DNA of 64,000 bases from Bdellovibrionota bacterium (GTDB lineage Bacteria > Bdellovibrionota > UBA2394), in assembly GCA_044351695.1 (NCBI GenBank), contig JBILFF010000001.1, positions 66,722-130,721 of the forward strand. The letters run 5' to 3'. Positions 2,435 to 42,000 of this stretch are shown one piece after another. Below the pieces are notes generated by a model. It did not search any database, was not told the DNA's origin, and saw nothing but the letters and a program-made list of their open reading frames with translations. The position numbers and the translations under genes are program-made. Position 1 is the stretch's first letter, and every line of letters begins with the position of its first letter.

Positions 2435-2501
2435 GCGCTGTGATTTCGAGCACTTAAATATCTTTCCCGAGTGGTGGCCAAATCTGATATAAAAGGGGCC
2501 T

Positions 2502-3446
2502 ATGTTTTTTAGCCTGATTGTTTGGTCTTCTGTGTCTGCCGCACCCGCACCCGCACCCACGCTCGAACGGGTTGCGACCCCTCCCTCAGGATCCAAAACG
2601 ATTGAAAGAATTGAAGCCCGAGTGGGAACGCAAATCATCACCACCTCAGAGCTGCGAGCGATGGAGGCCTTGCTCAAATCAGTAGAAGTTCGTGGTAGCT
2701 CCGAAACAACACTTCGCCAGCGAGCACTCGATTTACTGATCGAGCAAGCTTTGATTCGAGACTTTTTAGCAAAGCGAGAGATGACGATTAGTGAGCAAGA
2801 CGTTGAGCGCCGCGTTCAGGGCTTACGATCAAGCCAGGGCCTTTCTAGTTATGAAGAGCTTCAACAGCTTTTAGCCTCAAAAGGCGGAAGCCTTGAGCAA
2901 CTGAGAACCGACCTCAGAATGCAACTCGAGAGCCAGGCTTTTTTTGCAGCCATTAAACGAGAGGGTTTGCAGAGCATTCAAGAGTCGGACCTAAAAAATT
3001 ATTATCAACAAAATCGGGATCAGTTTGATCAGAACATTGAGCTGACTGTTCAGGAGTGCATGATTGATGCGGCCGCCGAAAAAGCCGATGCGCTAGTATC
3101 AAAATATGTATCGCAGCCCAGCTTGTTTGACGAATGTGTTCGCCTTCACAGCATAAGCCCCTCAAAAGCTCGGCAGGGAATGTTGGGCTCGATCACCCGT
3201 GGCATTTTGCGAGAAGAGGTGGAGAGCGTTTTATTTAGCACCGCGGTAGGAAGGGTCGCCCGGGTGAGCCTGCCCAACGCCACTCAGCTTTTAAAAGTGT
3301 TAGGCAAAAAGAATTTGGGAGCTCAGAGCTTTGATCAGGCTCGCTCTCAAATCGAGAGCATTCTAGAAGCGCAGCAAATGAATAAAGCCAAAGAAAGAGT
3401 GCTGAACGAGCTTCGGAGTTCCACTTTTATCAAAGTCGAATCTTAA
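2502..3446 (+). CDS. SurA N-terminal-domain chaperone / PPIase-like periplasmic protein (paralog 3)
   Basis: Signal peptide. SurA_N-like region and degenerate parvulin-like C-terminal domain. Same operon context upstream of pdxA. Confidence 0.6.
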   Translation: MFFSLIVWSSVSAAPAPAPTLERVATPPSGSKTIERIEARVGTQIITTSELRAMEALLKSVEVRGSSETTLRQRALDLLIEQALIRDFLAKREMTISEQDVERRVQGLRSSQGLSSYEELQQLLASKGGSLEQLRTDLRMQLESQAFFAAIKREGLQSIQESDLKNYYQQNRDQFDQNIELTVQECMIDAAAEKADALVSKYVSQPSLFDECVRLHSISPSKARQGMLGSITRGILREEVESVLFSTAVGRVARVSLPNATQLLKVLGKKNLGAQSFDQARSQIESILEAQQMNKAKERVLNELRSSTFIKVES

Positions 3447-7433: not shown

Positions 7434-8165
7434 TTAATGATCGTGAGATACCGCCATCTGGATGTACACCGTCGACAACAAGGTGAACACCAACGCCTGG
7501 ACCACACAAACGATTAATCCCAAAGCCATTGCCACAATGGGCAAGAAGAGAGGAACCAAACCAGAAACCACACCTTCAAATGTATGATCTCCATTCACAA
7601 CCCCCCAGAGACGGAGACTGAGAGTCATGGGTCGAATGAAGTGACTAAACAATTCTAAGAAAAAGAGGCCCACTCCGATAAACAAGGTGAATACCATCAT
7701 CACCGATCCATAGCCCTTCAGTGGCATCCCACCCATAAAGTGCTTGAGGTATCCAATTCCATTCGCTCTGAATCCAAAAAATTGATAGGCCGCAAAAACA
7801 AACAAACCCATCGCTAGATTGTTATTAAAATCCGCCGTGGGAGACAGCAGGCCCGGAATAAGTCCCATAAAGTTAGAGATAAAAATCAAAACAAAAGTGG
7901 TCGCGATGATTCCCAAATATTGATCTGAGCCGTGGCCAATCATGCCCTTGAGTAGGTTTCTAAAATAATTCATCACCTCAACGAGAGCATTGAAGAGATT
8001 GAACTTCGCTTCGGGCAGCGCATCACCGTCGGCTTGCGCCAGTGCTTTTTTTCGAACCAGCAAGCCCACCGCGACAAGGCCTCCACTGGCCAGCACTGAA
8101 GCCGCAAAATATTTGAGATCTTTTGCGACTCCTACTGCTTCAAAAAGATTAACACCCGATGCCAT
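7434..8165 (-). CDS. atpB: F0F1 ATP synthase subunit a
   Basis: Polytopic membrane protein with LSLRLWGV… and the conserved subunit-a C-terminal region. Adjacent to atpE. Confidence 0.85.
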   Translation of the reverse strand: MASGVNLFEAVGVAKDLKYFAASVLASGGLVAVGLLVRKKALAQADGDALPEAKFNLFNALVEVMNYFRNLLKGMIGHGSDQYLGIIATTFVLIFISNFMGLIPGLLSPTADFNNNLAMGLFVFAAYQFFGFRANGIGYLKHFMGGMPLKGYGSVMMVFTLFIGVGLFFLELFSHFIRPMTLSLRLWGVVNGDHTFEGVVSGLVPLFLPIVAMALGLIVCVVQALVFTLLSTVYIQMAVSHDH

Positions 8166-16920: not shown

Positions 16921-18081
16921 TTAATTGGCTTCGCTACCCAATTGCATGGGCATCACAATATTGAGTGAGCCGTCGCTCTTCATTCCTTTAATAAGACTGG
17001 GAGAAAGAACATCGCTCAGTTCAATCACCACATTCTCTTGGTTGTTCATCGCATTCAAAATATCGATAAAGTATCCGGCATTAAAACCGATTTCGATATC
17101 ACTGCCTTGATAATCAATATCTAGATCTTCTTTCGCTTCTCCCAACTTAGGATTGCTTGAAGATAAATGCAGTCGTCCATTCTTCAGTTCAAATCTCACC
17201 GAGCGCGAATGCTCCATCGATAAGACTGAAATTCTTTTTAGAGAATTGAGCAGCTGCTCTCTCTTGATGATTACCCTCTTATCGTTGCTGTCTGGAATGA
17301 CGGGTGTGTAATCAGGAAACTCACCATCCAAGAGACGCATAAATAACTGAATCTGTTGGTTATCTGTCCAAAAAACTGCGTTTGAATTCATCAAACAACA
17401 ATAAAAAGAATCTTCTTCACTCAAAAGACGGCGAAGTTCTGAGAGCCCTTTACGAGGTAAAATGACTCCCTTTTCAAGATCTACTTCGCCTCCGGCCTCA
17501 ACCATTTGATCCATCATCGATAGACGATGCCCATCGGTAGCCACCATTCGAAGATAGTCTTTTCCTTTTTCTTTGAGTCGCTCTAAAAATACGCCGCTCA
17601 AATCATAACGACTTTGATCGTTTGAAACCGCAAAGATCGTATGATCAATCATTTGAGCAAATTGGGATGATGTCAGTTTGAAGGATTTCTCAGAATCGAT
17701 TTGTGGAAGCTGAGGAAACTCATCTGCATCTTGGCCAACTAATTTAAAGACACTCTTGCCCGAGATCAGCTCGATCCAAAAATTATCAAAAATATGAAAC
17801 TGACATTCGCTATCAAGAGGAAGCTCTCGAACTATTTCATAAAGACTTTTTGCAGGCACAGCCACTTTACCAGCTTTACTCACCTTCGCCGGAAAGCTAA
17901 GGCGCAGCCCGACTTCTAAATCTGTGGCACTAAAGATCACGCGATCTTCACCGGCTTCTATGAGTAAATGGCTCAGAATCGGAATCGTATTCTTTTTGTC
18001 CACGACAGACTGAACCCTTTGCAAAGCTTTCAACAAGCTTTCTCGTCCAATCTCAAAGCCGGCTTTTTGATGGCTCTTCAT
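16921..18081 (-). CDS. dnaN: DNA polymerase III beta sliding clamp
   Basis: Three-domain beta-clamp. Classical dnaA-dnaN-recF-gyrB order. Confidence 0.9.
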   Translation of the reverse strand: MKSHQKAGFEIGRESLLKALQRVQSVVDKKNTIPILSHLLIEAGEDRVIFSATDLEVGLRLSFPAKVSKAGKVAVPAKSLYEIVRELPLDSECQFHIFDNFWIELISGKSVFKLVGQDADEFPQLPQIDSEKSFKLTSSQFAQMIDHTIFAVSNDQSRYDLSGVFLERLKEKGKDYLRMVATDGHRLSMMDQMVEAGGEVDLEKGVILPRKGLSELRRLLSEEDSFYCCLMNSNAVFWTDNQQIQLFMRLLDGEFPDYTPVIPDSNDKRVIIKREQLLNSLKRISVLSMEHSRSVRFELKNGRLHLSSSNPKLGEAKEDLDIDYQGSDIEIGFNAGYFIDILNAMNNQENVVIELSDVLSPSLIKGMKSDGSLNIVMPMQLGSEAN

Positions 18082-18150
18082 ATTGATAGGCTCTAGGAAT
18101 ATGTTTCTGTAAACCCTTTGTAAATTCGTTTTTGATGGGCCTAAAAGATT

Positions 18151-18226
18151 TGGTGGACCGGATCGGGGTCGAACCGACGACCTCTACAATGCCATTGTAG
18201 CGCTCTACCAACTGAGCTACCGGCCC
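18151..18226 (-). tRNA. tRNA-Ala(GGC), CCA encoded
   Basis: Cloverleaf folded by hand: acceptor GGGCCGG/CCGGTCC with the G3:U70 Ala identity pair, anticodon loop AT-GGC-AT, T-loop TTCGACC, 3' CCA. Confidence 0.85.
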
Positions 18227-18834
18227 ACTGAAAGACTCTTCTTCTTACGTGAAAGATTTTCAGATCTCAAATGAGATTCGCTCTGACGCTGTGCGTAATT
18301 ATGCACAAGCTCGCCAGATTCTACTAAGAGGGGCCTTTTAGTTTTAATTTTTTCTAATAGTAGTCGTAGTAGGTACCCCACTTCCCTGTGGAAATGTACT
18401 AACATACTGTAATTATTGACTAATTTATTCACAGCGCCTGTGGAGATTTTATACACAATTTTGGATTTTCAAAAATTTATCCACAATTTCTAAAAATCTC
18501 ACACAGAATTCACAGGCTACACACAGGAGTTATGCACAGGTCTGACAATTTCATGCACAGCTGTGCATAAATACCTGTGCATAAGTCTCTTTTTCCTTCA
18601 TTTATGCACAGCTTTGTCTTCTTGCGGCGCGAGAGCCTGTGCATAACTCCTAATAAATTAAAAAAAATGAGTAATTTCAATAGGATATTATCCACAGGCC
18701 TGTGCATAAATCTGTGCATAAAGTGTGCATAACTGCCAAAATCTGTGCATAAATAATGACAAGCTTTGCTGAGACCAGCAAAAGTGACGACTATAAGTCA
18801 CCTTTAAAAATTGAAAGATTAAAAAAAATAGAAC
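18227..18834. promoter_or_regulatory. Chromosomal origin of replication (oriC) with DnaA-box cluster and AT-rich unwinding element
   Basis: At least 14 copies of TTAT(C/G/A)CACA or TGTGCATAA. Starts: 18299, 18425, 18449, 18477, 18530, 18562, 18576, 18602, 18638, 18688, 18701, 18713, 18724, 18744. AT-rich stretch about 18650-18690. Lies between dnaA and dnaN. Confidence 0.85.
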
Positions 18835-20358
18835 TTAAACGCCTAGATCTCGAATCTGAGTTTCAATTCGACCGAGAGATTCTTTCAGAAAAGGATCCGA
18901 ATCTTGCAATCGTCCAATTCGTCGAACGGCATGCAGAACCGTCGTGTGATTCTTCCCACCAAATAGGGTTCCAATATCGGGCAATGAGAGATTGGTGTAC
19001 TTGCGACACAAAAACATCGCTAACTGTCTGGGAGTAGCGAGTTCACGGGTCTTCTTTTCACCCTTCAGATCGCCGATGCTCAAGCGGTACTGACGAGCGA
19101 CCAGCTTCATGATCTCTTCAGGATCACGAAATACTGGAGAGCCGTCTTGCGACTCCGGTTTTAAAACATTTTTGGCTAATTCTACAGTGATCTCTGATCC
19201 TGAGAGCGAGGCGAAGGCACTCAATTTTAAAAGAGCTCCCTCAAGCTCTCGAATGTTGGACCGATACATTTTAGCTAGAAGAAAAGCCACATCCTCGGAC
19301 AAATTGATTCCATCGGATTCTGCTTTCTTAAAAATAATCGCTACACGAGTCTCCATTTCGGGAGGCTGAATATCCACCAACAATCCCATCTCAAAACGAC
19401 TACGCATACGGTCCTCAAGGCCTTCGATGTCTTTCGGGGGTCGGTCGGAGGAGAGAACAATCTGTTTTTGATGTTCGTAGAGGGCATTAAAGGTATGAAA
19501 AAACTCTTCTTGGGTTCGCTCTTTGCCCTTCACAAATTGAATATCGTCGATAATCAAAACGTCGCAGTTTTTACGATATCGATCTCTAAATTCTTCCATT
19601 TTCTCGAAGCGAATGCTTTCGATCATGTGATTGGTGAACTTTTCAAAGGTCGTATAATGCACGCGCAAAGAGGGGTATCGCTCTTGGATTTTAAGACCAA
19701 TCGCATTTAAGAGATGTGTCTTACCGAGACCAACATCTCCATAGATAAAAAGCGGATTGTAATGTTTACCCGGGGCTTCAGTGACCGTGTAAGCCGCTGC
19801 GTGAGCAAATTGATTACTGGCACCGACCACAAAAGTTTCGAAACCATACTTAGTGTTGAGCACTGTTTCAGAAGAAAGAGTGGAGGGTCCCGTCTTTGAT
19901 GGTCCCGTTGGAGGAACAGCGGACACATTTTTTTTGAGAGTCTGAGCCGAAACCGCCGTGCTTGGTCGAGCCACAGCTCTACCGGGGCTAGAAACCCGCT
20001 TTTGTTCAATCGAGAACTCCAAACGATATTTGGCATTTGAGGCCAAACTAAACTGCTCTTCAATTAAGCCTGAATAGTGGTCGTAGACCCAGTCTCTTGA
20101 AAAACCATTAGGAAATCCTAAAACTAAGGTGTTTTCTTTAGCGCCGAGAAGTCGAATGGTAAGGATAAACGATTGAAAATATTGAGGTCTTACAACTGAC
20201 TCGATCGCCTTGAGGGTCCGATCCCAAGCGACCGCCATGTCCTCTGGGACATTTGATTCCTCGCCTTGATTCTCCTCCTCAGTTCTCATATACCTCACAT
20301 CGATCTTTGGGATACCACCTCGGTGGATCTGCAGTAGGTAGTAACTTGTACTCAGCAT
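18835..20358 (-). CDS. dnaA: Chromosomal replication initiator DnaA. Likely start at an internal Met, about 20238 or 20289
   Basis: AAA+ Walker A GDVGLGKTHLL, sensor motifs, and the C-terminal DnaA-box-binding helix-turn-helix (…ATPRQLAMFLCRKYTNLSLPDIGTLFGGKNHTTVLHAVRRI…). Confidence 0.95.
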   Translation of the reverse strand: MLSTSYYLLQIHRGGIPKIDVRYMRTEEENQGEESNVPEDMAVAWDRTLKAIESVVRPQYFQSFILTIRLLGAKENTLVLGFPNGFSRDWVYDHYSGLIEEQFSLASNAKYRLEFSIEQKRVSSPGRAVARPSTAVSAQTLKKNVSAVPPTGPSKTGPSTLSSETVLNTKYGFETFVVGASNQFAHAAAYTVTEAPGKHYNPLFIYGDVGLGKTHLLNAIGLKIQERYPSLRVHYTTFEKFTNHMIESIRFEKMEEFRDRYRKNCDVLIIDDIQFVKGKERTQEEFFHTFNALYEHQKQIVLSSDRPPKDIEGLEDRMRSRFEMGLLVDIQPPEMETRVAIIFKKAESDGINLSEDVAFLLAKMYRSNIRELEGALLKLSAFASLSGSEITVELAKNVLKPESQDGSPVFRDPEEIMKLVARQYRLSIGDLKGEKKTRELATPRQLAMFLCRKYTNLSLPDIGTLFGGKNHTTVLHAVRRIGRLQDSDPFLKESLGRIETQIRDLGV

Positions 20359-20427
20359 TGATCGTCAAAGCTTTTTTCGAGGCAAGCCCTTGACTTGGTT
20401 TTCGATGTTATTGAGATTGGAGAGCTT

Positions 20428-20577
20428 ATGAAAAGAACCTTTCAACCCAGCAAGATTCGGCGAAAGCGATCGCACGGTTTTTTGACTAGAATGGCTACAC
20501 CAGGTGGTCGTCGTATTTTATCAAACCGTCGAGCAAAGGGCCGTGCACGCCTTATCCCCACAGTCTACGAAAAGTAA
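20428..20577 (+). CDS. rpmH: 50S ribosomal protein L34
   Basis: [42 protein letters not shown] matches L34 almost residue for residue. Confidence 0.9.
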
Positions 20578-20959
20578 GCCTCAGACGCTTTCTTACCCGA
20601 AAGCACTTAGGCTGAAATCTCGAGCAGATTTTTTATCTGTATTTGCTGATTCTCGGTCCGAGAACGGAAGGATTTTTCGCGGCCAGATTTTTAGCTTTTT
20701 TGTATCGAGAGCAAAAAAATTGGCCGATCATCCGAAATTCGGAATTAGTGTTTCTAAAAAAAATCTTCGTAAGGCTCATGATCGAAATCAACTAAAACGC
20801 TGGCTTCGAGAGTGGTTTCGACATCATCAACATGAACTGAACGTTTCTTGTGTGGTTCGATGGGATGGTAAGCGAGAGGATCTGAGTCGAGAACAGATCT
20901 TGAAAGAGCTTGAGAGATTTTTGAATAAGCAAAAATCATGGGCCAACAAATTCTCTTAA
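20504..20959 (+). CDS. rnpA: RNase P protein component. The GTG start overlaps rpmH by about 74 nt
   Basis: RnpA motif …[23 protein letters not shown]…. No in-frame canonical start lies downstream of the rpmH stop. Confidence 0.8.
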
Positions 20960-21213
20960 TCCTCTACAAAGCCCTGCTGCCCATCAATCTGGTTATTCAT
21001 CATTTTTGTCATTTTTTTGGGATTCGACTGGTCTGCAAGTTCTCGAGATCTTGCTCGCAATTTACTCTCGAAGAGTTGAGGGCCGCGGGTGTCACGTCAA
21101 AAAATCGTCAGTCTTTGTTGCGAAGTCTCAGTCGTATCGTGCTAAGACTGATCGCTTGCTCGCCGCTCTTTGGGTGTTTTGAAAAAGCGGGCATTGTAAA
21201 AAATTTATACTGA
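20938..21213 (+). CDS. yidD: Membrane protein insertion efficiency factor YidD
   Basis: CxFxPSCSQ(F/Y) motif. Position between rnpA and yidC. Confidence 0.7.
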   Translation: MGQQILLILYKALLPINLVIHHFCHFFGIRLVCKFSRSCSQFTLEELRAAGVTSKNRQSLLRSLSRIVLRLIACSPLFGCFEKAGIVKNLY

Positions 21214-21301
21214 GCTGTTTGTTTTCGTTGCATGCCACACCGGGCTGACATCGAGAGTCGTCAGAAGAAGTAGGTATAAACAAATTTAGTTGAGGTGATT
21301 T

Positions 21302-28859: not shown

Positions 28860-29300
28860 ATGGATTTAAGTATAAAACCTTTAAACCTTTTGTTGCACCT
28901 GGGTCTCTACATCTCGGTGCTTTTAGTGATGAAATTTCTTTATGTGGACCCTGTTTTGCGTCTTCTGCGAAAACGTGAAGCGCTCACAGAGGGTCGCACA
29001 AAGTCCTCGCAAGAAATGCAGCTCAAGATTGCGGAGTTGCAATCGCAGTATGATACGCAGATATCAAGCGTGAAGGCAGAGCTTGAGCTTCGCCGATCAG
29101 GCGAGCTTCGCTCCGCCCAAAAAGAAGTTGGCGAGAAGGTGAAGCGAGCTCAAAAAGAGTTAGATTTGAAACTTCAAGCAAAGCAGGCCCAGCTTGAGGC
29201 GATGGCGAGTGATCTTAAGAAACAAATTCCTGTCTTGGGTGATCAGGTGGGGCGGGAAATGGCCGAAGCTATTATGAGTGGAAGGGTCGTGAGATCATGA
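28860..29300 (+). CDS. atpF: ATP synthase F0 subunit b' (b-type stator subunit)
   Basis: Single N-terminal TM, then a long coiled-coil. First of two b-type genes before atpH. Confidence 0.7.
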   Translation: MDLSIKPLNLLLHLGLYISVLLVMKFLYVDPVLRLLRKREALTEGRTKSSQEMQLKIAELQSQYDTQISSVKAELELRRSGELRSAQKEVGEKVKRAQKELDLKLQAKQAQLEAMASDLKKQIPVLGDQVGREMAEAIMSGRVVRS

Positions 29301-29797
29301 GCCTTTTGTTTAAAGGGATCAATATTGCCATTCTTCTGTTGATCCTCTTTTGGTTTTTAAAGAAAAAGATGGAAACCTACTTTCAACAGCAGCGTGACGA
29401 GCTTGATGGTCATATGAGGCGCGCCGCTGCAGAGTTAGAGAAGATCGAACAAGACTATCAGCAAGTATCAGACAAAATGGCGGGTCTCGACGCCCAGCTT
29501 TCTGAAATGCAAAAACAGAGTGAAGAGTCGATTCAAAAAGATGTGCAGCGACTCAAGAAGGATGCCGACGCCCTCATTCAAAAAATGTCGATGGAGGCAG
29601 AGCAGCGAATGGATAATGAGCTTGGAAAAGCGAAAGCTGAGTTCACGAACGAGCTCATTGATGCCGCTCTCGCTGGAGCGCGTGCTGAGCTTAACAGCAA
29701 GATGTCAAAGATGGACGAGTCTTGGACGGTCAAAATGGTTTCAGATGGAATGAGCGCTGAAAAAGGATCAAGAGAGAGGGCGAACTATGCCTCGTAA
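29297..29797 (+). CDS. atpF: ATP synthase F0 subunit b
   Basis: N-terminal TM plus coiled-coil. Overlaps the previous gene by 4 nt. Confidence 0.75.
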   Translation: MSLLFKGINIAILLLILFWFLKKKMETYFQQQRDELDGHMRRAAAELEKIEQDYQQVSDKMAGLDAQLSEMQKQSEESIQKDVQRLKKDADALIQKMSMEAEQRMDNELGKAKAEFTNELIDAALAGARAELNSKMSKMDESWTVKMVSDGMSAEKGSRERANYAS

Positions 29798-30332
29798 TTC
29801 CGAAGCAGCTCGTCGCTATGCCCGAGCTTTGTATCAGCTCAGCGAGTCCGGCGATCATGGCTCTCGCCCTCAGCAGGTAGTGCAGGAGCTTCGAGCTTTT
29901 GAGCAGGCCTTCACCAAGACCGCAGAGGTTCGGGTGTTTTTAGAATCCCCCATTGTTCAGGTCGCAGAGAAGAGGGAGGCGCTACAGGCGCTTGAGCCGA
30001 GCCTTCCAGCGGCGACAAGATTTCTGATTGTTTTGATGGAGGCTGGTCGCATTTCTCTAATCAAAGAGGTTCGTCGTGAATTCGAATTGCTGATGGAGCA
30101 TGCGTCTGGAGAGGTTTCGGTCACGCTAGAAACCGCGCGCAGCTTTTCAGAGAGAGGGATCGAAGAGATCAAAAGACTCTTAGAGTCTGAGTGGAACAAG
30201 AAAGTGAAGATTGAGCCGGTAGTGAATCCCGAACTTATTGGTGGGTTTGTGGCAAGCTCGGCCGGAAAAAGTTTAAACGCGAGCGCGTTGGGGCAGTTGG
30301 AGCTCCTCAGCGAAAAGCTTGCGTCTGTGTAG
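29787..30332 (+). CDS. atpH: ATP synthase F1 delta subunit
   Basis: OSCP-family size and position. Conserved C-terminal …ELIGGFV…. Confidence 0.8.
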   Translation: MPRNSEAARRYARALYQLSESGDHGSRPQQVVQELRAFEQAFTKTAEVRVFLESPIVQVAEKREALQALEPSLPAATRFLIVLMEAGRISLIKEVRREFELLMEHASGEVSVTLETARSFSERGIEEIKRLLESEWNKKVKIEPVVNPELIGGFVASSAGKSLNASALGQLELLSEKLASV

Positions 30333-30350
30333 ATTAAGGAGAAGCAGCTC

Positions 30351-31871
30351 ATGTCAGTTCGCGCAGAAGAAGTGAGTGAAATTTTAAAGTCAAAGATTAG
30401 AAAGTTCGAGCGTGTCCTTGAGGCCAAAGACTCTGGAACAGTCATCAGTGCCAGTGATGGGATTGCGAGAATTTACGGGCTTGATTCGGCCATCGCCGGT
30501 GAGTTGGTTGAGTTTCCCGGTGGAATTCGAGGTTTGGTTTTGAATCTCGAGTCTTCAGAGGTGGGCGTGGCGATTTTGGGCCGCTACGAGAAAATTAAAG
30601 AGGGCGACACGGTAAAGCGAACGGGTGAAATTGCTTCGGTTCCTGTGGGCGAGGCGCTTTTGGGCCGCGTCGTTGATGCTCTAGGAAATCCTATTGATGG
30701 GAAGGGCCCGATCGATACGAAGCATCGCCGCCCAATTGAAATGAAGGCGCCGGGAATTGTTCCTCGGCAATCGGTGAAAGAGCCCCTTCAAACGGGTATC
30801 AAGGCTATCGATGGAATGATTCCGATTGGCCGTGGTCAGAGGGAGTTGATCATTGGGGATCGTCAAACCGGCAAGACGGCTATCGCGATCGATACGATCA
30901 TTAATCAAAAAGGCCAGGATGTTCATTGCTTCTATGTGGCGATCGGCCAAAAGCAATCTTCTGTGGCACAGGTTGTCTCAAAGCTCGATCGTGCCGGAGC
31001 GATGGAGTACACTACAGTTATTACGGCATCTGCAAATGAGCCTGCCCCTCTTCAGTTTTTGGCTCCATACGCTGGATGCGCGATGGCTGAATATTTTCGA
31101 GACACCAAGAGACATGCTTTGATTGTCTATGACGATCTTTCAAAACAAGCTGTGGCCTATCGTCAGCTTTCGTTGCTTTTGAGACGACCTCCGGGTCGAG
31201 AGGCTTATCCTGGAGATGTTTTTTACGTACATAGCCGACTCTTGGAGCGGGCGTGCAAAAGAAACGACGCTACCGGTGGCGGCTCGCTCACGGCTCTTCC
31301 TATTATTGAAACTCAGGCGGGAGATGTTTCTGCTTATGTTCCGACGAATGTGATTTCAATCACGGATGGGCAGATCTTTTTAGAGAGCGACCTTTTTTAC
31401 TCGGGCGTTCGACCCGCAATCAACGTAGGAATTTCGGTTTCTCGAGTGGGCGGCTCCGCTCAGATCAAGGCGATGAAGTCTGTTGCGGGTAGCTTGCGAC
31501 TGAATTTAGCACAATACCGAGAGCTGGAGTCCTTTGCGCAGTTTGGAAGTGATTTGGATGCAGCGACTCAGCAGCAGCTGACGCGAGGAAGCCGATTAGT
31601 TGAGCTGCTCAAGCAGGGCCAGTACCAGCCGCTGTCTGTAGAAAAGCAGGTCATCTCGATTTACATGGGAGTCAGTGGATTCCTCGATGACATCCAAGTC
31701 AGTGATGTTCGTCGATTTGAGTCGGAGTTTTTAGGATATCTCACGAATCATCATCAAGGAATTCTAGAAGAGATCCGATTGAAAAAGGTGATCGATGATA
31801 ACCATAAGGCCCAGCTCAACCAGATCATCAAAGATTTTAAAGCCAATCAGTTCGTGGGGACTAAAAAGTAG
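30351..31871 (+). CDS. atpA: ATP synthase F1 alpha subunit
   Basis: GDRQTGKT P-loop and the canonical alpha sequence. 506 aa. Confidence 0.97.
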
Positions 31872-31876
31872 AGCTT

Positions 31877-32740
31877 ATGCCTTCTTTAAAGCAAATTCGA
31901 AAACGGATCACGAGCGTTAAGAATACGCGAAAGATCACGAAGGCGATGAAGATGGTCTCTGCGGCCAAGCTGCGTCGGGCAACTGAAAAAGCAGAGTCGT
32001 CGCGACCATATGAGGCCGAGCTTTTAAGGATCTGCTCGACGGTGTTGAAGGATCTAGAGTGGCACTCGCCTCTCTCGGAAAATCGTGAATCTAAAAAAGT
32101 GGTCCTCGTTTTGGTGTCCACGGATCGCGGATTGTGCGGGAGCCTTAACACCAACCTATTTAAGGCCGTGAGTCGCTATGTTGAAGCTCACCCACAGGTG
32201 GATTTTGAGGCGGTATGTTTTGGAAAAAAGGCTCGGATATTTTGCAACAAGAGAGGAATTAAGATCCGAGAAGCGCATATCGATCTTCTGCGGAACGGAA
32301 GATACGCACTCTTCGAATCGGTGGCGCAAAAGCTGAGAGACGCGTTTCTGAACAAACAAATCGATCGAGTTGAGCTTTTCTTTATGCAGTTTAGATCGGC
32401 GCTGATTCAGATGCCCATTCGCAGCACATGGCTTCCTTTTGAGCTGCCGACCGATGTGGAGGCGCTGGAAGGGGCGAGTAGCTATTTGTTTGAGCCCAAG
32501 GGGGCAGAGCTTTTGGATCGCCTAGTTCCTTTGCTGATTAATTTTAAACTATATCGAGCTTATTTGGAGTCTGTGGCTTCGGAGCACGGGGCGCGCATGA
32601 CAGCGATGGATGCGGCCTCCAACAACTGCCGAGACATGATCTCGAGACTGACCTTGCAGATGAACCGTGCGCGACAAGCAGCGATCACCAAAGAGCTAAT
32701 GGAGATTATTGGTGGAGCAGAGGCGATCTCTGCGGCCTAA
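31877..32740 (+). CDS. atpG: ATP synthase F1 gamma subunit
   Basis: MPSLKQIRKRITSVKNT…KITKAMKMVSAAKLRRA N-terminus and conserved C-terminus. Confidence 0.95.
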   Translation: MPSLKQIRKRITSVKNTRKITKAMKMVSAAKLRRATEKAESSRPYEAELLRICSTVLKDLEWHSPLSENRESKKVVLVLVSTDRGLCGSLNTNLFKAVSRYVEAHPQVDFEAVCFGKKARIFCNKRGIKIREAHIDLLRNGRYALFESVAQKLRDAFLNKQIDRVELFFMQFRSALIQMPIRSTWLPFELPTDVEALEGASSYLFEPKGAELLDRLVPLLINFKLYRAYLESVASEHGARMTAMDAASNNCRDMISRLTLQMNRARQAAITKELMEIIGGAEAISAA

Positions 32741-34203
<1,463 letters not shown>

Positions 34204-34204
<1 letters not shown>

Positions 34205-34446
34205 TGAAAGTAAGAATTTCAACACCCGAGCAGGTTGTCTATGCGGGTGAAGCGGATTCTTTAGTGATCGAGGGAGATCAAGGACAGCTCGAGATTCTCC
34301 CTCAGCACGCTCGACTAGTCACTTTTGTGAGGGCAGGTTTGGCGCGGGTTCGCAAGGGCACTCAAGTTCAAGAGTTTAATTTGAACGAGGGAGTGATGAG
34401 GATTCAGAATGATGAAATCAGCATTCTCTCCTCAAGGCTTGCTTAA
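34204..34446 (+). CDS. atpC: ATP synthase F1 epsilon subunit, beta-sandwich domain only, 80 aa
   Basis: Matches the N-terminal domain of epsilon. There is no C-terminal two-helix domain. The stop abuts a convergent gene. Confidence 0.8.
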
Positions 34447-35036
34447 GATTTAGGGCTTTCTTTAGCAGAGAGCTTGATTTGAAGTTTGCCGCGCTCGTCT
34501 TTGCCGAGTTTTAGGGCCAGACCCTTTCCGGGGTGTTTTTCTTTAAAATGAAGGATTTGCTTTTCGAGCTTAAGTTCAAATGAAGCCCGGTCGGGTAGCT
34601 TTGCGGTTGGCCCCGAGCTTTCGGCCAACTTTTTATAGAGAGCATCGATAGCCTTTTTTTCTTTGGGCGAAATTTTGAGCTCGTTTGCTGGGGCGGATGA
34701 GGACTGGGTTTGCCGCGGAGCCGCTCTTTCTCGCTCGTGTACTTTCGCAATAAACTTATCGCGCCTATAAACTCCCTCCTCGATTTGCTGACAAATCTTT
34801 GCCCAGTGAACATGAAGTTGATTGTATCGAGCCTTCAAATTGACGAAGCGGAACTTTTGAGAAGTGGAGTTCATGTCCGCAGGATTGACTCCCAGAAGTT
34901 GGCGTCGCCAATCCGTATGCTGATCTCGAGGTTCAATGCGGGCTTGACCCGAGAAGTAGAGTTCATAAGCGTGCTTAAGATCTTCAAGACCAGATTCAAG
35001 CGATTGAAGCTTCGCGTCTGTCGCGACTGCACTCAT
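34443..35036 (-). CDS. Conserved hypothetical cytoplasmic protein, 197 aa
   Basis: Long ORF with a good coding look. No family recognised. Lys-rich C-terminus. Confidence 0.5.
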   Translation of the reverse strand: MSAVATDAKLQSLESGLEDLKHAYELYFSGQARIEPRDQHTDWRRQLLGVNPADMNSTSQKFRFVNLKARYNQLHVHWAKICQQIEEGVYRRDKFIAKVHERERAAPRQTQSSSAPANELKISPKEKKAIDALYKKLAESSGPTAKLPDRASFELKLEKQILHFKEKHPGKGLALKLGKDERGKLQIKLSAKESPKS

Positions 35037-35197
35037 GAGTGGGCCCTCACCTCTCTATTGTACTCCGAGTGACCTGGGGCGCGAGTGTCGCGAGGTGTGC
35101 GGGCCCTGCGGCCCTAGCCTCCCGGAATCCTTGTGGTTTCGCGCCCCCCCGGGATCGCATAGAAATTGCAAATCTGAAGGGCTGGGGAGGATTCTAG

Positions 35198-36712
35198 TTG
35201 GTGGGCCGAATATTTCGCGGGCTTCTTTTTTTTCTAGCGAGCCTTGTGATGGTGGAATTTGGAGAGGGCCTGAGGGCTTCGGCCAGACACGCACTCCTTT
35301 TTTCTCCTTCGGGTCAGCGGATTAACGAATCGCCAGCGCCAGCCAATTCGCGCGCTATTTTTCATCGATTGAGTACTGCGTGCGACTTGGATCCACAAAG
35401 AATCTGCATTAACTATCAGTTACAACTCCCCTCAAACATTCAAGAGGTTGAGGTTCTTACTCAGGCCGCAAGCAGCGTCCAGCTATGGACCACATCATCT
35501 GGAGCTCATTTGGGATCGCAGTATCAAGGCTTGTTTGCCGGCTCGGGCCTTCCTTTTGAACGAGACGGGGCTGGGTCTATTTTGCTGGACGAGTTTGGAA
35601 ATCAAAAACTTTCGGGTCCTATTCTGATCTCACTCGCACCGCCACCAGAACTGATTGAGGATTTTGCTGCAAACGAAGTGGCTCGAAACATCTACTACGT
35701 TCTGCCGGATCTCCAAAATTCTCAAGGGGAGCTGCTGTGGGCAGGAATTTACATTAATCCAAAGTTTAATCCCTTGATGGATTGCCAAGCGCCGGCCGCC
35801 AGCTGCTTTTCTATGACGGGCTTTGGTAGCTTTTCTTTGCGGTCTATCATCATTTATCAGTTGGGCTTAATCTTGGGAATCGCAGCTTCCGCTCTTCCAG
35901 ACTCTGTCATGTTTCCAGTGCAAAATCCGAGCTGGCCCAAGAACTACTCTAATCTCAGAGAGCATGAAAAAAATCTCGTGAGAAAGATTTATCAGGGCCC
36001 AGAACCAGAAGATCTCGGAAGCTTGAGGGGCCGGGTCACAAGCGGCGATGGGGGCGCGGGGCGCCCCGGGGCCAGCGTTTTTGCGTTGGCCGCAGATCGG
36101 ATGGATGCCGTGATTCGCACCCAAAGCTTAGATTTGTTTTCAGCATCTACGACGACCAGGCAAGGTGGCGAGTTCGTCTTTGAGGCGCTGATTCCTGGAG
36201 AGTATCTCATTTTTGTAGAATCTCCATTGGCACGGGGGCTTTCAAAAAATAAATTTGATGAATGGGTGAAGCGGTTTGGCGCGGATGAGTATTTTGCGCC
36301 CGAGCTCTATGATGGTCGAGATCGAGAGTCAAACAATGAGCCCGCAGATTTTTCTCCGCAGCTTTTTCGCGTGGCCGCGCGGGTCGTGGTGACAGCCGGA
36401 GAAGAGACCTCGGGTGTTCATGTCATTACCCAGCGAAGTCAATCTGGGTCGGCTCAATTAGTGGCCGGAGGCTCCACCAACGAAATTCTTTCGGATTACG
36501 AATTCAAAGACTTGAAGAATTTGATTCGGGATGAAATTCGATCTCAGCTCGATCGGCCCGAGAAGGCCAAGGGATCCTCAGGTTGTGCCGTCGGCACGCG
36601 GCCAGAAAAGTCTGGCTGGGGTTTTATTTTTGTTTTTTGGATTGCACTATGCCTGTGGTTTCGATTCCGATGGGGTCAGAAAGCAAAATTACACCCTGCT
36701 GGATGCCGGTGA
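35198..36712 (+). CDS. Secreted protein carrying a degenerate (catalytically dead) metzincin-like motif, a CarboxypepD_reg-like beta-sandwich, and a C-terminal TM plus basic tail
   Basis: Signal peptide. IIYQLGLILGI…SVMFP resembles HExxHxxGxxH plus Met-turn with all His/Glu replaced. …GRVTSGDG…GASVFALAADRMD…GEFVFEALIPGEYLIFVESPLARG is CarbopepD_reg-like. Ends …GSSGCAVGTRPEKSGWGFIFVFWIALCLWFRFRWGQK. Confidence 0.55.
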   Translation: MVGRIFRGLLFFLASLVMVEFGEGLRASARHALLFSPSGQRINESPAPANSRAIFHRLSTACDLDPQRICINYQLQLPSNIQEVEVLTQAASSVQLWTTSSGAHLGSQYQGLFAGSGLPFERDGAGSILLDEFGNQKLSGPILISLAPPPELIEDFAANEVARNIYYVLPDLQNSQGELLWAGIYINPKFNPLMDCQAPAASCFSMTGFGSFSLRSIIIYQLGLILGIAASALPDSVMFPVQNPSWPKNYSNLREHEKNLVRKIYQGPEPEDLGSLRGRVTSGDGGAGRPGASVFALAADRMDAVIRTQSLDLFSASTTTRQGGEFVFEALIPGEYLIFVESPLARGLSKNKFDEWVKRFGADEYFAPELYDGRDRESNNEPADFSPQLFRVAARVVVTAGEETSGVHVITQRSQSGSAQLVAGGSTNEILSDYEFKDLKNLIRDEIRSQLDRPEKAKGSSGCAVGTRPEKSGWGFIFVFWIALCLWFRFRWGQKAKLHPAGCR

Positions 36713-37916: not shown

Positions 37917-38171
37917 CTATCGAAAGTCGGCCGTTTGCTCATCTCGTTGCTCTTCGGAGAGCGGCGTCCCGCCACTGCGCAGATACTCCTCGTAGTCAAA
38001 TTTGCCGCCGCTTTGGCAGTCGGGGGTAAAGGCAGCCTCATTGACCGGCCGATCGGTAACATCATTTGCATCGAGGACACACAGATTTTCGGTCCCACAG
38101 GCGCTCAAAACCCCTAAAAGCATTAGAAAACTGAAGAGCTTCCAATATTGCATGCCGGAACTTAGTAGCAA
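37917..38171 (-). CDS. Small Cys-containing lipoprotein (84 aa), probably co-transcribed with the FHA-ATPase
   Basis: Signal peptide with lipobox LSAC. Ends 10 nt upstream of the ATPase start. Four Cys. Confidence 0.5.
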   Translation of the reverse strand: MLLSSGMQYWKLFSFLMLLGVLSACGTENLCVLDANDVTDRPVNEAAFTPDCQSGGKFDYEEYLRSGGTPLSEEQRDEQTADFR

Positions 38172-38278: not shown

Positions 38279-39142
38279 GTGTTAGGTGCTTTGGTGAATT
38301 TTTCTTCGAGGTCCGGAGGAGCGTTTAGAGATCCAGTTTGGCTGGGGGCCTGGCTTATGGTTTCGCTTCTCATTCATGCCATGATCATGAGTTTTGTGGT
38401 TTTTTGGGCGCCTCAGATGGGCGGCACGAAGAGCCATGTGAGTTCGCCGATTCCGGTAGAGATTGTTCAGCGACCTAGCGAGCTCATCAAGACCCTACAG
38501 CCCGAAGCCACCGAGAAGCCCGATGATGCCAATTTTGTGAGTGATCGGGATTTGAAAGCAGATGAAGAAACAAGCCCAGAACTGGCCGCTCTCGATATGC
38601 CGAGCGCGGGCACGGCAGGAGCCGCTAAGGGGCGATCTGTACGTGAATCAAAGCCCAAGACCCGCGAGAGCTTTGGTTTGAGCTCCGCTGATAAAGAAGC
38701 GCTCGAAGATCCACTGCAGGGCGGGCAAGCGAGAGAGTTTCGTCAGTTTTCTCCGGGCTTTCAAAAGCGTCTCAAGCGAGGTGAGCAACTGAAGGTCAAC
38801 GCCTTTGGCCTTGATTACGGCCAGTATTATTTACGCATGAAAGAGAGGCTCGCGCAGCGCTGGAGGCCGCTTTCAGTGATCAGTCCGGCCATGTACAATT
38901 ACGATGAAGTTCAGGTTCTAGTGGCGATTGTTTTAAACTCAGCGGGTGAGCTGGTGGACCTCGAAATTCTTCGACCCTCTTTCTTTTCGCGCTACGATCA
39001 GGTGGCGATCGATGCCATAAAGGCAGCCGCTCCATTTCCGAATCCACCCAAGTCGATCATTCAGGACGACGGACGAGTCTATGTGACCTGGGGATTTGTT
39101 TTAAACATTGGCCGTTCAGGACTTCAGCGCGGGATCCAGTGA
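38279..39142 (+). CDS. TonB C-terminal-domain protein (TonB-family energy transducer-like)
   Basis: N-terminal TM anchor, charged linker, C-terminal TonB_C-like domain (…VLVAIVLNSAGELVDLEILRPS…AIDAIKAAAPFPNPP…). Confidence 0.6.
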   Translation: MLGALVNFSSRSGGAFRDPVWLGAWLMVSLLIHAMIMSFVVFWAPQMGGTKSHVSSPIPVEIVQRPSELIKTLQPEATEKPDDANFVSDRDLKADEETSPELAALDMPSAGTAGAAKGRSVRESKPKTRESFGLSSADKEALEDPLQGGQAREFRQFSPGFQKRLKRGEQLKVNAFGLDYGQYYLRMKERLAQRWRPLSVISPAMYNYDEVQVLVAIVLNSAGELVDLEILRPSFFSRYDQVAIDAIKAAAPFPNPPKSIIQDDGRVYVTWGFVLNIGRSGLQRGIQ

Positions 39143-40666
39143 TCACAACCATCTGAGGCGCGCTTGTTTTTGAGCGCGCAACTCATCGACACGACGACGA
39201 AAAGTTCGCGTCGGAGCGTGAGCCACGAGTTCGCGATCCGTCTTTACCTCGTTGGCGATTTGAATCATGGCATCACAAAACTCGTCTAGGGCTTCTTTCG
39301 TTTCACTCTCTGTGGGCTCGATAAGCATCGCTCCAGAGACCACCAGCGGAAAGTAAACCGTCATCGGATGATAGCCGTAGTCCATCAGGCGCTTAGCAAT
39401 ATCGAGCGTCTTGATGCCGTACTCTTCTTGAAATCGGTCTGAGATGAGGCACTCGTGCATACAAATTCTTTTAAATGGAATGTCGTAATGATCCTGTAGT
39501 CGAACTCGAATATAATTTGCATTCAGCACAGCTGCTTCGGCTATCTTTCGAAGATAACTCGACTCTCCATCTTCAGTGGTTCCGATCGACAGCATATAGG
39601 TGAGCGCTCGAATATGAATGGCAAAATTACCAAAGTAGCCGCCAATTCGCCCGATGCTATACGGAGCATGATAGTCATATCGAAAGCTTGAACCCTCTCT
39701 GACCACTCGGGGGTTCGGCAAAAACTCTCGAAGATGTTCTCGAACCGCCACTGCGCCCGCGCCAGGACCACCACCTCCGTGGGGGGTTGAGAATGTTTTG
39801 TGTAGGTTGATGTGCATGACATCGACGCCCAAATCTCCCGGTCGAACGATTCCTAAGATCGCGTTAAAGTTTGCCCCGTCCATATAAAAGACGCCGTCAA
39901 CGGCATGAATCAGTTCGGCAATTTCATGAATATGATCTTCAAACAGCCCCAAGGTGTTTGGGTTGGTCATCATGATGCCGGCAACAGACTCATCAATCAG
40001 CGGCTTGATGTCGGCAATCTCAACAACACCCTTAGGATTTGTGGGAATAGAAACAATCTCATATCCCACCATGCTACAGGTAGCGGGGTTCGTGCCATGC
40101 GCTGACTCAGGAATCAGCACTTTTGTTTTTCTGTGATCTTGATTCTTCTTTCGATGATAGGCCTGAATAATTTTGATGCCCGCGTATTCCCCGTGAGCCC
40201 CTGCACTTGGCTGAAGCGTGACTCCGGGTAGGCCGGTGACTCGTGCTAAAAGATCTTCAAGCTCATGCTGAATTTTCATGCCCACTTGCAAAAAACTCTC
40301 ATCCCAAAAGGGGTGCAGCTCAGCAAGCGCGGGCAAGCGCGCAATCTCTTCGTTGATTTTAGGATTATACTTCATGGTGCAGCTGCCGAGAGGATAGAGT
40401 CCCAAATCAATCGCGTAATTTTTTTGCGAAAGGCGGGTGTAGTGTCGGACTACTTCATTTTCGCTGATCTCTGGAAAGCCTGCGACTTCGCTTCTCACTA
40501 AAGAAGCCTTCCATTGCTTGCTGGCCTCTGCTTGCGGAACATCTAGCGGTGCAAAGCTAAATCCTCGTCTGCCCGTCACGCTTTTGTCAAAGAGGGTAGG
40601 CTCTTCGAAGGTGGTAACCTGACCAAGCCTTGGATGACTTTCGAGTTTAGGATTGTCTTTTGTCAT
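39143..40666 (-). CDS. gcvPB: Glycine dehydrogenase (decarboxylating) subunit 2. Start taken as the Met overlapping the gcvPA stop
   Basis: PLP-dependent GcvP C-terminal half (…NLHKTFSTPHGGGGPG…). Confidence 0.9.
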   Translation of the reverse strand: MTKDNPKLESHPRLGQVTTFEEPTLFDKSVTGRRGFSFAPLDVPQAEASKQWKASLVRSEVAGFPEISENEVVRHYTRLSQKNYAIDLGLYPLGSCTMKYNPKINEEIARLPALAELHPFWDESFLQVGMKIQHELEDLLARVTGLPGVTLQPSAGAHGEYAGIKIIQAYHRKKNQDHRKTKVLIPESAHGTNPATCSMVGYEIVSIPTNPKGVVEIADIKPLIDESVAGIMMTNPNTLGLFEDHIHEIAELIHAVDGVFYMDGANFNAILGIVRPGDLGVDVMHINLHKTFSTPHGGGGPGAGAVAVREHLREFLPNPRVVREGSSFRYDYHAPYSIGRIGGYFGNFAIHIRALTYMLSIGTTEDGESSYLRKIAEAAVLNANYIRVRLQDHYDIPFKRICMHECLISDRFQEEYGIKTLDIAKRLMDYGYHPMTVYFPLVVSGAMLIEPTESETKEALDEFCDAMIQIANEVKTDRELVAHAPTRTFRRRVDELRAQKQARLRWL

Positions 40667-42000
40667 TTGGACATCGCCCCCACGAAGGCGGCCATTTTTT
40701 GAATGTCCTCTTTGCTGTGCATCTCGCTCACGTGAATCAATAGTCGATGTTTCCATGAATCCTTAAACCTCCCGAGGTCAACGCCCACCACCCACGACTC
40801 TTCGGCGGCTTTTCGAACGACTTGTGCCGCGGGGATGGAGAGCTCGCATGTGAACTCATTAAAAGTGGGGCCCTCAAGAACACCAACGCCCGCTTTCTTA
40901 AGAGTGGACTTGGCAAACTCCGCTTTCGAAAAATTAATTTGTGCCAACTCGCGCATGCCCACTTTGCCCAAGCTTGCTAAATGAAACAATCCAGCCAGCA
41001 TGTTGAGATTGTTATTGGTACAAATGTTAGAGGTTGCTCGTCCCCGACGAATAAACTGCTCGCGGGTGGCGAAGGTGAGCGTGTAGCTGCGGCGGCCCTC
41101 TTCATCTAAGGTTTCACCCACCAATCGGCCCGGCAGGTTTCTCAGATATTCGTTTCTCGTGCAAAAAATTCCAAAACTAGATCCGCCCAAGTAGGGGCCG
41201 TTACCAAAAGAGGAGCCCTCACCCGTCACAATATGAGCACCAAAAGCTCCAGGCCCTCGGAGCAGTCCCCAAACCAAGGGCTCCATGGTGGAGCTAATCC
41301 AAAAAGCCCCGCGCTCTTTGACGATGCGACCAATCTCTTCATCGTCTTCAATGAGACCAAAAACATTCGGGCTTTGCGTGATAAGAATATCACCCTCTTC
41401 TAAGCGGCCCCGCAAGTCCTTCGCATCGATTCGACCCGAGCTTGAGGCAAAATCTGCAAGCCTTTCTTTAAAGGGATCGGAGTAAGATCGAACCACCTCT
41501 TGATAGTTGGGGTGTACATTGTCGGGCATCCAGATCTTGCTCGTTGTTTTCTTTTGAATTCTCACAGCCATCAGCACGGCCTCGCCGAGCGAGGTGGCGC
41601 CGTCGTAGAGCGAAGCATTTGAAAGCTCTGTCTCGGTGAGCTGACACGCCAGCGTTTGATACTCAAAAATACACTGAAGGGTGCCTTGAGAAATCTCGGG
41701 CTGGTAGGGCGTATAAGAGGTGGCGAACTCTGATCGCATCTGAAGAGTCGGAACAATGCTCGGCACGTCGTGTTGATAAATTCCGCAGCCCGCAAAACTG
41801 ATCGTGGGACGGGGGTGTGCTGCGAGCAGCTCTTTAAACTTCTTTCGCAACTCAAACTCAGAGTGTGCACGGGGATAATCGATTTTTTTGGGAAGCCGAT
41901 GCTGTTTGGGAATGGCCTCAAAGAGCTCGTCGACGGACTGCACACCGACCTTGGACAGCAGAGCTGTCTGATCGCTTGAGGACTGCGGAATGTACTTCAT
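40663..42000 (-). CDS. gcvPA: Glycine dehydrogenase (decarboxylating) subunit 1
   Basis: GcvP N-terminal half. Operon position. Confidence 0.9.
   Translation of the reverse strand: MKYIPQSSSDQTALLSKVGVQSVDELFEAIPKQHRLPKKIDYPRAHSEFELRKKFKELLAAHPRPTISFAGCGIYQHDVPSIVPTLQMRSEFATSYTPYQPEISQGTLQCIFEYQTLACQLTETELSNASLYDGATSLGEAVLMAVRIQKKTTSKIWMPDNVHPNYQEVVRSYSDPFKERLADFASSSGRIDAKDLRGRLEEGDILITQSPNVFGLIEDDEEIGRIVKERGAFWISSTMEPLVWGLLRGPGAFGAHIVTGEGSSFGNGPYLGGSSFGIFCTRNEYLRNLPGRLVGETLDEEGRRSYTLTFATREQFIRRGRATSNICTNNNLNMLAGLFHLASLGKVGMRELAQINFSKAEFAKSTLKKAGVGVLEGPTFNEFTCELSIPAAQVVRKAAEESWVVGVDLGRFKDSWKHRLLIHVSEMHSKEDIQKMAAFVGAMSK

Follow-up and report, generated by a model that had tools for sequence, protein, structure and literature searches.

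What does a metalloprotease-like protein do when its zinc site has gone, when it ends in a membrane helix with a basic tail, and when the last codons of its gene also encode, on the other strand, the end of an ATPase? This question is raised by the open reading frame (ORF) at 35198-36712 of a 64-kb stretch of the Bdellovibrionota bacterium assembly GCA_044351695.1 (contig JBILFF010000001.1), the whole of which is called here the window. The product of this ORF is referred to as the pseudo-matrixin or the window protein. A first-pass annotation of the nucleotide sequence had proposed a secreted zincin scaffold unable to bind zinc, a C-terminus of the sorting-signal type and an 89-nt overlap with a convergent ATPase gene. 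Taken as a whole, the account that we favour and consider probable is that the pseudo-matrixin is a Sec-exported, non-catalytic descendant of the matrixins (peptidase family M10) with a Cys-type sorting tail, and that its gene carries an inherited dual-coding overlap. From its N- to its C-terminus the protein would comprise a signal peptide, a fold like that of the matrix metalloproteinases (MMPs), a transthyretin/CarboxypepD_reg-like beta-sandwich with a YDGxxRESNxE loop, a helical linker and the Cys-type signal (Table 1).

Fold and former zinc site

An exhaustive HMMER search returned 80 matches, 43 of them at E <= 1e-10 and about 35 full-length (450-520 amino acids) with 24-42% identity; word-index searches with the single sequence or the family alignment picked up nothing beyond the protein itself and unrelated proteins with beta-sandwich repeats. 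Family counts given here refer to an alignment of 32 homologs, while the genomic loci of relatives were located with a 14-sequence alignment in genome and metagenome scans. These relatives sit in metagenome-assembled genomes (MAGs) that carry the labels Bacteriovoracaceae, Bdellovibrionota or 'Deltaproteobacteria bacterium CG11', and no member of the family bears a functional name. The pseudo-matrixin is an ortholog within an unnamed, apparently single-locus family so far confined to Bdellovibrionota/Bacteriovoracaceae-like MAGs.

As the window protein alone gives sub-threshold Pfam matches (Peptidase_M10, PF00413: 13 bits, E = 0.096, below the 24-bit gathering threshold), its assignment to the matrixins was decided at the level of the family. 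Peptidase_M10 is matched by 28 of the 32 homologs (E <= 0.1; best 4.2e-14). Searched against the PDB, the family profile retrieved over 60 different chains of MMPs and karilysin at E-values from 2.7e-11 to ~1e-9, among them MMP-13, -8, -12, -3 and -1 and karilysin, with the motif aligned residue for residue; the consensus AHEiGrlLGLapS..SvMYP..L..dD..lY falls on AHEFGHSLGLDHS..ALMFP..LPDDDVQGIQSLY of MMP-13. A single-sequence phmmer search of the PDB yielded only chance matches, to peptide deformylase (E = 1.5). Given the 32-sequence alignment, AlphaFold (AF2) produced a model with a mean predicted local distance difference test score (pLDDT) of 89.5 and a predicted template-modelling score (pTM) of 0.83, in which the motif lies in the helix formed by residues 214-225; from the single sequence the pLDDT was 36. 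The model has the metzincin catalytic-domain fold (five-stranded sheet, three helices), and Foldseek placed it with MMP-7 and karilysin at a template-modelling (TM) score of ~0.62. The proposal of a zincin scaffold lacking its zinc ligands agrees with this structure.

The former active site lies within residues 214-240 of the window protein, SIIIYQLGLILGIAASALPDSVMFP. In the HExxHxxGxxH register Y220, Q221, L224 and A230 stand where His, Glu, His and His are expected, and G227 alone is kept; M238 of the Met-turn (S-V-M-F-P) and Ser231, a matrixin marker, are retained as well. The first-pass annotation was correct that the spacing, the Gly and the Met-turn persist and that Tyr, Gln and Leu occupy the first three positions, and was mistaken about the last, where it had read Ile rather than Ala230. 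Across the family the first His is kept in 10 of 32 members, the catalytic Glu in 21 and the Met of the Met-turn in 25; the second His has mostly become Arg (19) or Lys (5), the third Pro (16), Ala (8) or Ser (5), and the Ser that follows the third His position is near-invariant. At least two His ligands have been lost in 31 of the 32. The homologs' motif aligns to HExGR..GL.PS..S.MYP, and the most distant member (P0046) is the only one with a complete zinc motif, HEIGHVIGLAHS..AIMYP, which argues that the site is a degenerate metzincin site and not an unrelated segment. Given that P0046 alone is intact, we read the family as an old pseudo-matrixin clade whose zinc site was lost early, with the window protein among its most degenerate members. 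Zinc-dependent endopeptidase activity is predicted to be absent from the window protein, as its ligands are missing. P0046 (1584-3125 of locus L009), whose gene is still convergent with that of an FHA-T2SSE ATPase across a 4-nt overlap, might be used as the family's active reference.

More distant matches comprise large multidomain proteins and a 423-residue protein (P0063), which share the layout of an M10 domain plus beta-sandwich and keep HExxHxxGxxH. P0063 ends in a CTERM of the Gly-run-Cys type. Since these relatives retain the active-site motif and P0063 this kind of C-terminus, it is plausible that the ancestor of the family was active and CTERM-anchored.

The C-terminal tail

The window protein ends in GSSGC(463)-AVGTRPEK-SGWGFIFVFWIALCLWF-RFRWGQKAKLHPAGCR, which includes RFRWGQKAK, and its model has a C-terminal helix at residues 474-497. 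The three-part tail recurs in all 32 members. The aligned Cys is invariant, with Gly before it in 29 and GGC in 20, while the sequence around it is otherwise unconserved; after a spacer of 6-17 residues comes a stretch of 13-26 uncharged, mostly hydrophobic residues, directly followed by Arg (29) or Lys (3), with at least two basic residues among the first eight. A tail of this kind is what the first-pass annotation had recognized, leaving three classes of sorting signal to choose from, and these can now be narrowed to the Cys type (myxosortase/CPBP). PEP-CTERM/exosortase and GlyGly-CTERM/rhombosortase were rejected, there being no PEP motif and no NCBIfam match among the 32 members at E <= 10; the Gly-Gly seen in 20 of them precedes an invariant Cys, as is typical of the Cys-type class and unlike GlyGly-CTERM. 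A short motif with an invariant Cys, a transmembrane helix and an Arg-rich cluster at the extreme C-terminus are shared with the Cys-type CTERM signals (10.1101/2023.06.07.544157; PMC11980579). Four such signals have been described on the basis of this signature and assigned to myxosortases of the CPBP family (10.1101/2023.06.07.544157), and cleavage and cell-surface sorting have been demonstrated experimentally for MrtX of Myxococcus xanthus (PMC11980579). The single Cys and the occurrence about once per locus recall JDVT-CTERM in particular. The tail departs from the curated Cys-type signals in having no GCGC motif. It also lacks the Asp-Pro (DP) of the JDVT-CTERM helix, near-invariant there nine residues past the Cys, and at none of 10 loci does a CPBP gene adjoin it as the MrtJ protease gene does in JDVT-CTERM; the Bdellovibrionota lie outside the reported ranges of these signals. 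It appears to act like a Cys-type sorting signal, yet one outside every curated model.

Under the favoured account, Sec would translocate the protein and the C-terminal helix, oriented with the Arg cluster inside, would retain it in the inner membrane. A myxosortase-like CPBP intramembrane protease would then modify it at, or cleave it near, the Gly-Cys, and the processed protein would be displayed on the cell envelope. There it may act as a binding or scaffolding module, through the retained substrate cleft, the invariant acidic loop or both, rather than as a protease.

Several observations weigh against this account. The window protein is not matched by TIGR03901 (MYXO-CTERM, 20-bit cutoff) at E <= 10 or by NF033191 (JDVT-CTERM), and these two models give sub-threshold matches in just two of the 32 relatives (P0006 reaches 13.8 bits with MYXO-CTERM). 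No gene for a sortase, exosortase, rhombosortase or CPBP protease turned up among the larger ORFs scanned in the window, and those with a family match in that scan are housekeeping genes. About 200 kb of the window and related loci contain no second client with the same tail, and in the window the pseudo-matrixin is the only ORF to have it. The spacer between Cys and helix is often charged. In Haft's survey true MYXO-CTERM is restricted to Myxococcota and Bradymonadales, and one-per-genome matches outside these groups are deemed questionable (10.1101/2023.06.07.544157). The suggested binding role, finally, is drawn solely by analogy with other pseudopeptidases (PMC11266112). In the ~200-kb scan a purE-like ORF was also flagged and discarded as a false positive.

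The absence of a sorting enzyme from the ORFs scanned, the unmatched curated models, the single substrate per sampled locus and the charged spacer would all be expected if the C-terminal helix were a plain, unprocessed type-I anchor, leaving the protein in the inner membrane and facing the periplasm with its Gly-Cys put to another use such as a disulfide. This is the strongest competitor, although we consider it improbable. A plain anchor does not account for a Cys fixed in every member just outside the helix, nor for the basic residue that abuts the helix as in the signature of Cys-type signals (10.1101/2023.06.07.544157), and active M10 relatives have been curated as dependent on a myxosortase. 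A Cys-type sorting signal is the reading that we carry forward.

The convergent overlap

The gene convergent with that of the pseudo-matrixin encodes an ATPase that matches Pfam T2SSE (9e-34) and TIGR03819 (4e-57), with FHA below its cutoff (0.0058). The C-terminal motif of the ATPase, GIQQGVILLSDPIG, is conserved in its orthologs. The ATPase tail is genuine protein: it lines up with the canonical CpaF-type C-terminus found in the homolog adjacent to P0046 (L009), compared with which it is shorter by some 30 residues. The ATPase is an orphan, the window having no other pilus or secretion genes.

The overlap of 89 nt is exact, with both ORFs present. In the two-frame display I-L-L-S-D-P of the ATPase is antisense to W-G-Q-K-A-K, which follows the helix of the pseudo-matrixin, and the end of the ATPase, G-I-V-Q-S-K-K-Q-K, is antisense to the hydrophobic helix itself. 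Tail-to-tail overlap was found at ten distinct loci, seven of them with long overlaps (89, 74, 71, 113, 62, 125 and 71 nt) that are all in phase 1; of the remaining three, one is 14 nt long in the same phase and two, of 34 and 4 nt, are in the other phase. The seven long overlaps stack over a block of 69 nt without an indel. As the first-pass annotation had anticipated, the segment constrains both frames, and over the block mean pairwise identity reaches 53% for the ATPase frame against 30% for that of the pseudo-matrixin. Roughly half of the family has [DG][QL][KR]x[KR] past the Arg cluster; as this motif is missing where the register of the overlap differs, it is best understood as an imprint left by the ATPase frame. 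The overlap is real, ancestral and dual-coding.

Such an overlap could be a device: transcription converging across the 89 nt might couple or mutually repress the surface protein and the ATPase, and the two might work in one pathway. There is precedent in the antisense crosstalk at the 3'-overlap of arfA and mscL (PMC10070815), and the pair is convergent and adjacent at every locus with both genes, including that of P0046 with its different flanks, just as the phase of the long overlap is kept at seven loci. However, the overlap can be as short as 4 nt or as long as 125 nt, and two loci deviate in phase. In relatives the order is the atp operon, a gene of ~195 codons (-), the pseudo-matrixin (+), the ATPase (-), a small lipoprotein (-), TonB_2 (+) and gcvP (-), yet in the two closest lineages (L008/P0005 and L010-L011) the ATPase has been lost, and the surviving pseudo-matrixin runs into the lipoprotein gene by 80 and 41 nt. 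Terminator and promoter scans around the overlap gave results at the level of shuffled sequence, and an Rfam scan of the window found two tRNAs only, both distant from the locus, with no element near it. Tight packing of convergent genes is moreover the rule genome-wide. A functional overlap is thus unlikely in our view, and expression coupling is not needed to explain what is seen. An obligatory functional pairing with the ATPase was rejected outright, given the loss of the ATPase in the two closest lineages.

The overlap looks instead like the tolerated outcome of genome packing and a tail under low constraint, with no device that requires both genes. It would be an inherited dual-coding segment in which most of the sequence constraint comes from the ATPase frame (ILLSDPxG...GIxQ), while the frame of the sorting signal would need just hydrophobicity followed by positive charge and would probably be discarded after processing. 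This low demand, together with the end-to-end packing of convergent genes, makes the overlap tolerable.

Several neighbouring arrangements belong here. The small predicted lipoprotein (37917-38171, -; 84 amino acids, LSACG lipobox) lies upstream of the ATPase; in L008 it has an ortholog with 42% identity that is the direct convergent neighbour of the pseudo-matrixin, as is a similar ORF in L011. End-to-end packing is the general pattern for convergent genes in this genome: the window's other convergent pairs abut or have overlaps of 0-4 nt, and a TonB_2-domain protein (38279-39142, +) and glycine dehydrogenase subunit 2 (39143-40756, -) converge with zero intergenic bases.

The acidic loop, known systems and genomic setting

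The putative beta-sandwich of the window protein scores 26.2 bits (E = 1e-5; cutoff 32.3 bits) with CarboxypepD_reg (PF13620), a family matched by 27 of the 32 homologs. It differs from PF13620 in being interrupted by an insertion of ~45 residues that bears the YDGxxRESNxE loop, the most conserved feature of the family: Y371, G373, E377, N379 and E381 are invariant, and F370, D372 and S378 nearly so. The loop is not present in the distant active M10 relatives. Judged by its acidic and amide character, it may be a site that binds a metal or a ligand. Strong conservation beyond the former active site also extends to the N-terminal Cys pair (C62, C70) and to the strand at the edge of the cleft (W-A-G-I-x-x-N-P, residues 181-188).

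That the loop is conserved more strongly than the former active site, that the Glu at the catalytic position survives in many relatives and that the cleft-edge strand is maintained might be taken to mean that the protein is still a hydrolase, with a non-canonical site in a remodelled cleft or in the acidic loop, possibly with Ca2+ or another metal. We regard this as very unlikely. In the window protein all four catalytic and ligand positions are taken by other residues (Tyr, Gln, Leu and Ala), the Arg or Lys that replaces the second His in relatives would fill the metal site instead of binding metal, and Pfam and PDB profile searches show no similarity of the region to any other hydrolase family. 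A non-catalytic role remains preferred.

Long convergent overlaps in annotations are often artefacts, but the chance that the tail and the overlap arise here from a frameshift, a wrong stop or a non-coding ORF extension is close to negligible: four contigs from independent samples encode exactly this protein, which rules out an assembly accident as the source of the reading frame, the helix and basic tail occur in all 32 homologs, including loci without the overlap, and the ATPase tail motif is conserved across all orthologs.

By fold, the closest known systems are the matrixins (MEROPS M10A, PF00413), such as human MMP-12, -13, -8 and -7 and karilysin of Tannerella forsythia. In contrast to these, the window protein lacks the three His ligands and the catalytic Glu, the cysteine-switch prodomain and the hemopexin domain, and adds an N-terminal hairpin with two conserved Cys, the putative transthyretin-like domain and CTERM signal. 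Among curated families, NF041905 of M. xanthus ('myxosortase-dependent metalloprotease, MXAN_2677/MXAN_2678 family') comes nearest and likewise combines an M10-like domain with a Cys-type signal. It gives local matches over the motif region in 15 of the 32 relatives, the best being 59.8 bits for P0046 (profile positions 128-240; cutoff 250 bits), and does not match the window protein; it belongs to another phylum, is presumably active to judge by its name, and the YDGxxRESNxE loop was not seen in these matches. The eukaryotic metzincin pseudopeptidases ADAM11, ADAM22 and ADAM23 resemble the pseudo-matrixin in having retained the metzincin fold, lost the zinc site and kept a membrane anchor, and pseudopeptidases of this type are extracellular and act by binding (PMC11266112). 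They are of the adamalysin, not the matrixin, branch, and beyond the fold are unrelated to it in sequence.

The pseudo-matrixin would then be a catalytically dead variant of the matrixin-like, CTERM-sorted surface proteins, in an unannotated family of Bdellovibrionota-like MAGs. No single one of its three features is unprecedented; it is their combination, with the invariant YDGxxRESNxE loop, that is distinctive. If the account is true, the family provides a clean bacterial case of a matrixin-derived pseudoenzyme, where reviews of pseudopeptidases cover almost exclusively eukaryotic ones, and extends Cys-type signals of the myxosortase class to a phylum of predatory bacteria, beyond their reported range. 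The conserved, in-phase and indel-free overlap is a natural case of dual coding in which a constrained enzyme tail lies opposite a sorting signal that is under little constraint and probably disposable. The findings leave current understanding intact; what they offer is annotation for an orphan family and a tidy test case. A more far-reaching, joint reading is only tentative and falls short of an even chance: the Bdellovibrionota would have a fifth, hitherto undescribed Cys-type sorting system (a signal specific to the lineage, of G-G-C, charged spacer, helix and Arg cluster) with a CPBP-type sortase of its own, the pseudo-matrixin would be its ancient, conserved client, YDGxxRESNxE would be the true functional site of this client, for example for Ca2+-dependent binding of a ligand or of the prey surface, and 60-125 nt would have been shared with the orphan FHA-TadA-like ATPase since before the genera diverged.

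Table 1. Features of the pseudo-matrixin locus, in window coordinates
Feature	Position	Strand	Remarks
Shine-Dalgarno-like GGGGAGGA	35184..35191	+	6 nt 5' of TTG; read from sequence
Pseudo-matrixin, complete coding sequence	35198..36712	+	504 amino acids, TTG start, TGA stop (ORF list)
Predicted Sec signal peptide, residues 1 to ~29 (MVGRIFRGLLFFLASLVMV..LRASA)	35198..35284	+	Conserved hydrophobic segment
Matrixin-like (M10) catalytic-domain fold, residues ~30-268	35285..36001	+	Predicted to be catalytically dead
Degenerate zinc motif and Met-turn, Y220-Q221-L-G-L224-I-L-G227-I-A-A230-S231...S-V-M238-F-P	35855..35917	+	Column-by-column table
Putative transthyretin-like / CarboxypepD_reg beta-sandwich, residues ~272-415	36011..36442	+	Conserved insertion of ~45 residues
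Family signature (F/L)YDGxxRESNxE, residues 370-381	36305..36340	+	Most conserved stretch of the family
A-x-G-S-x-N-E-x-L segment, residues 423-431	36464..36490	+	Past the beta-sandwich; A423, G425, E429 near-invariant
Putative tripartite C-terminal sorting signal	36572..36712	+	GSSGC463, spacer, hydrophobic helix S472-F488, basic tail R489..R504
T2SSE/TadA-VirB11-like ATPase, 427 amino acids	36624..37907	-	Weak N-terminal FHA-like region; convergent with pseudo-matrixin
89-nt dual-coding segment	36624..36712	both	Pseudo-matrixin residues 476-504 (+); last ~29 codons and stop of ATPase (-)

The start of the pseudo-matrixin has been called differently in public annotations, as GTG at 35201 or as ATG at codon 18 (P0001, P0004; region 35198-35250). 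The ATG would cut off the hydrophobic N-terminus, a segment conserved among homologs. As the homologs keep this segment and a Shine-Dalgarno sequence is present, a TTG or GTG start (35198 or 35201) fits better than the ATG. Residues 3-20 are helical in the model, and a near-invariant Ala27 follows the hydrophobic segment in the family alignment; the signal peptide would be cleaved.

Divergently upstream of the pseudo-matrixin lies a gene for a protein of 197 amino acids (34443-35036, -), the stop of which overlaps atpC by 4 nt. It matched no Pfam or NCBIfam family, and its position is kept in L003, L004, L007 and L008 (194-200 amino acids).

The window covers a replication-origin region of a bacterial chromosome, with dnaA, dnaN, recF, gyrB, gyrA, yidC, mnmE, mnmG, parA and parB, and also carries the ATP synthase operon, glycine-cleavage genes, uvrB and uvrC. 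Around dnaA (18835-20358, -; region 18000-21300) dnaN, recF, gyrB and gyrA lie to one side and yidC, mnmE and mnmG to the other, and cumulative GC skew reaches its minimum at ~18-20 kb. The atp operon is split, the gene for the ATP synthase A chain (7434-8165, -) being ~21 kb from the atpF-H-A-G-D-C cluster (29297-34446, +). Near the start of the window (600-3446, +) stands a row of three tandem paralogs of SurA-N/PpiC-type peptidyl-prolyl isomerases.

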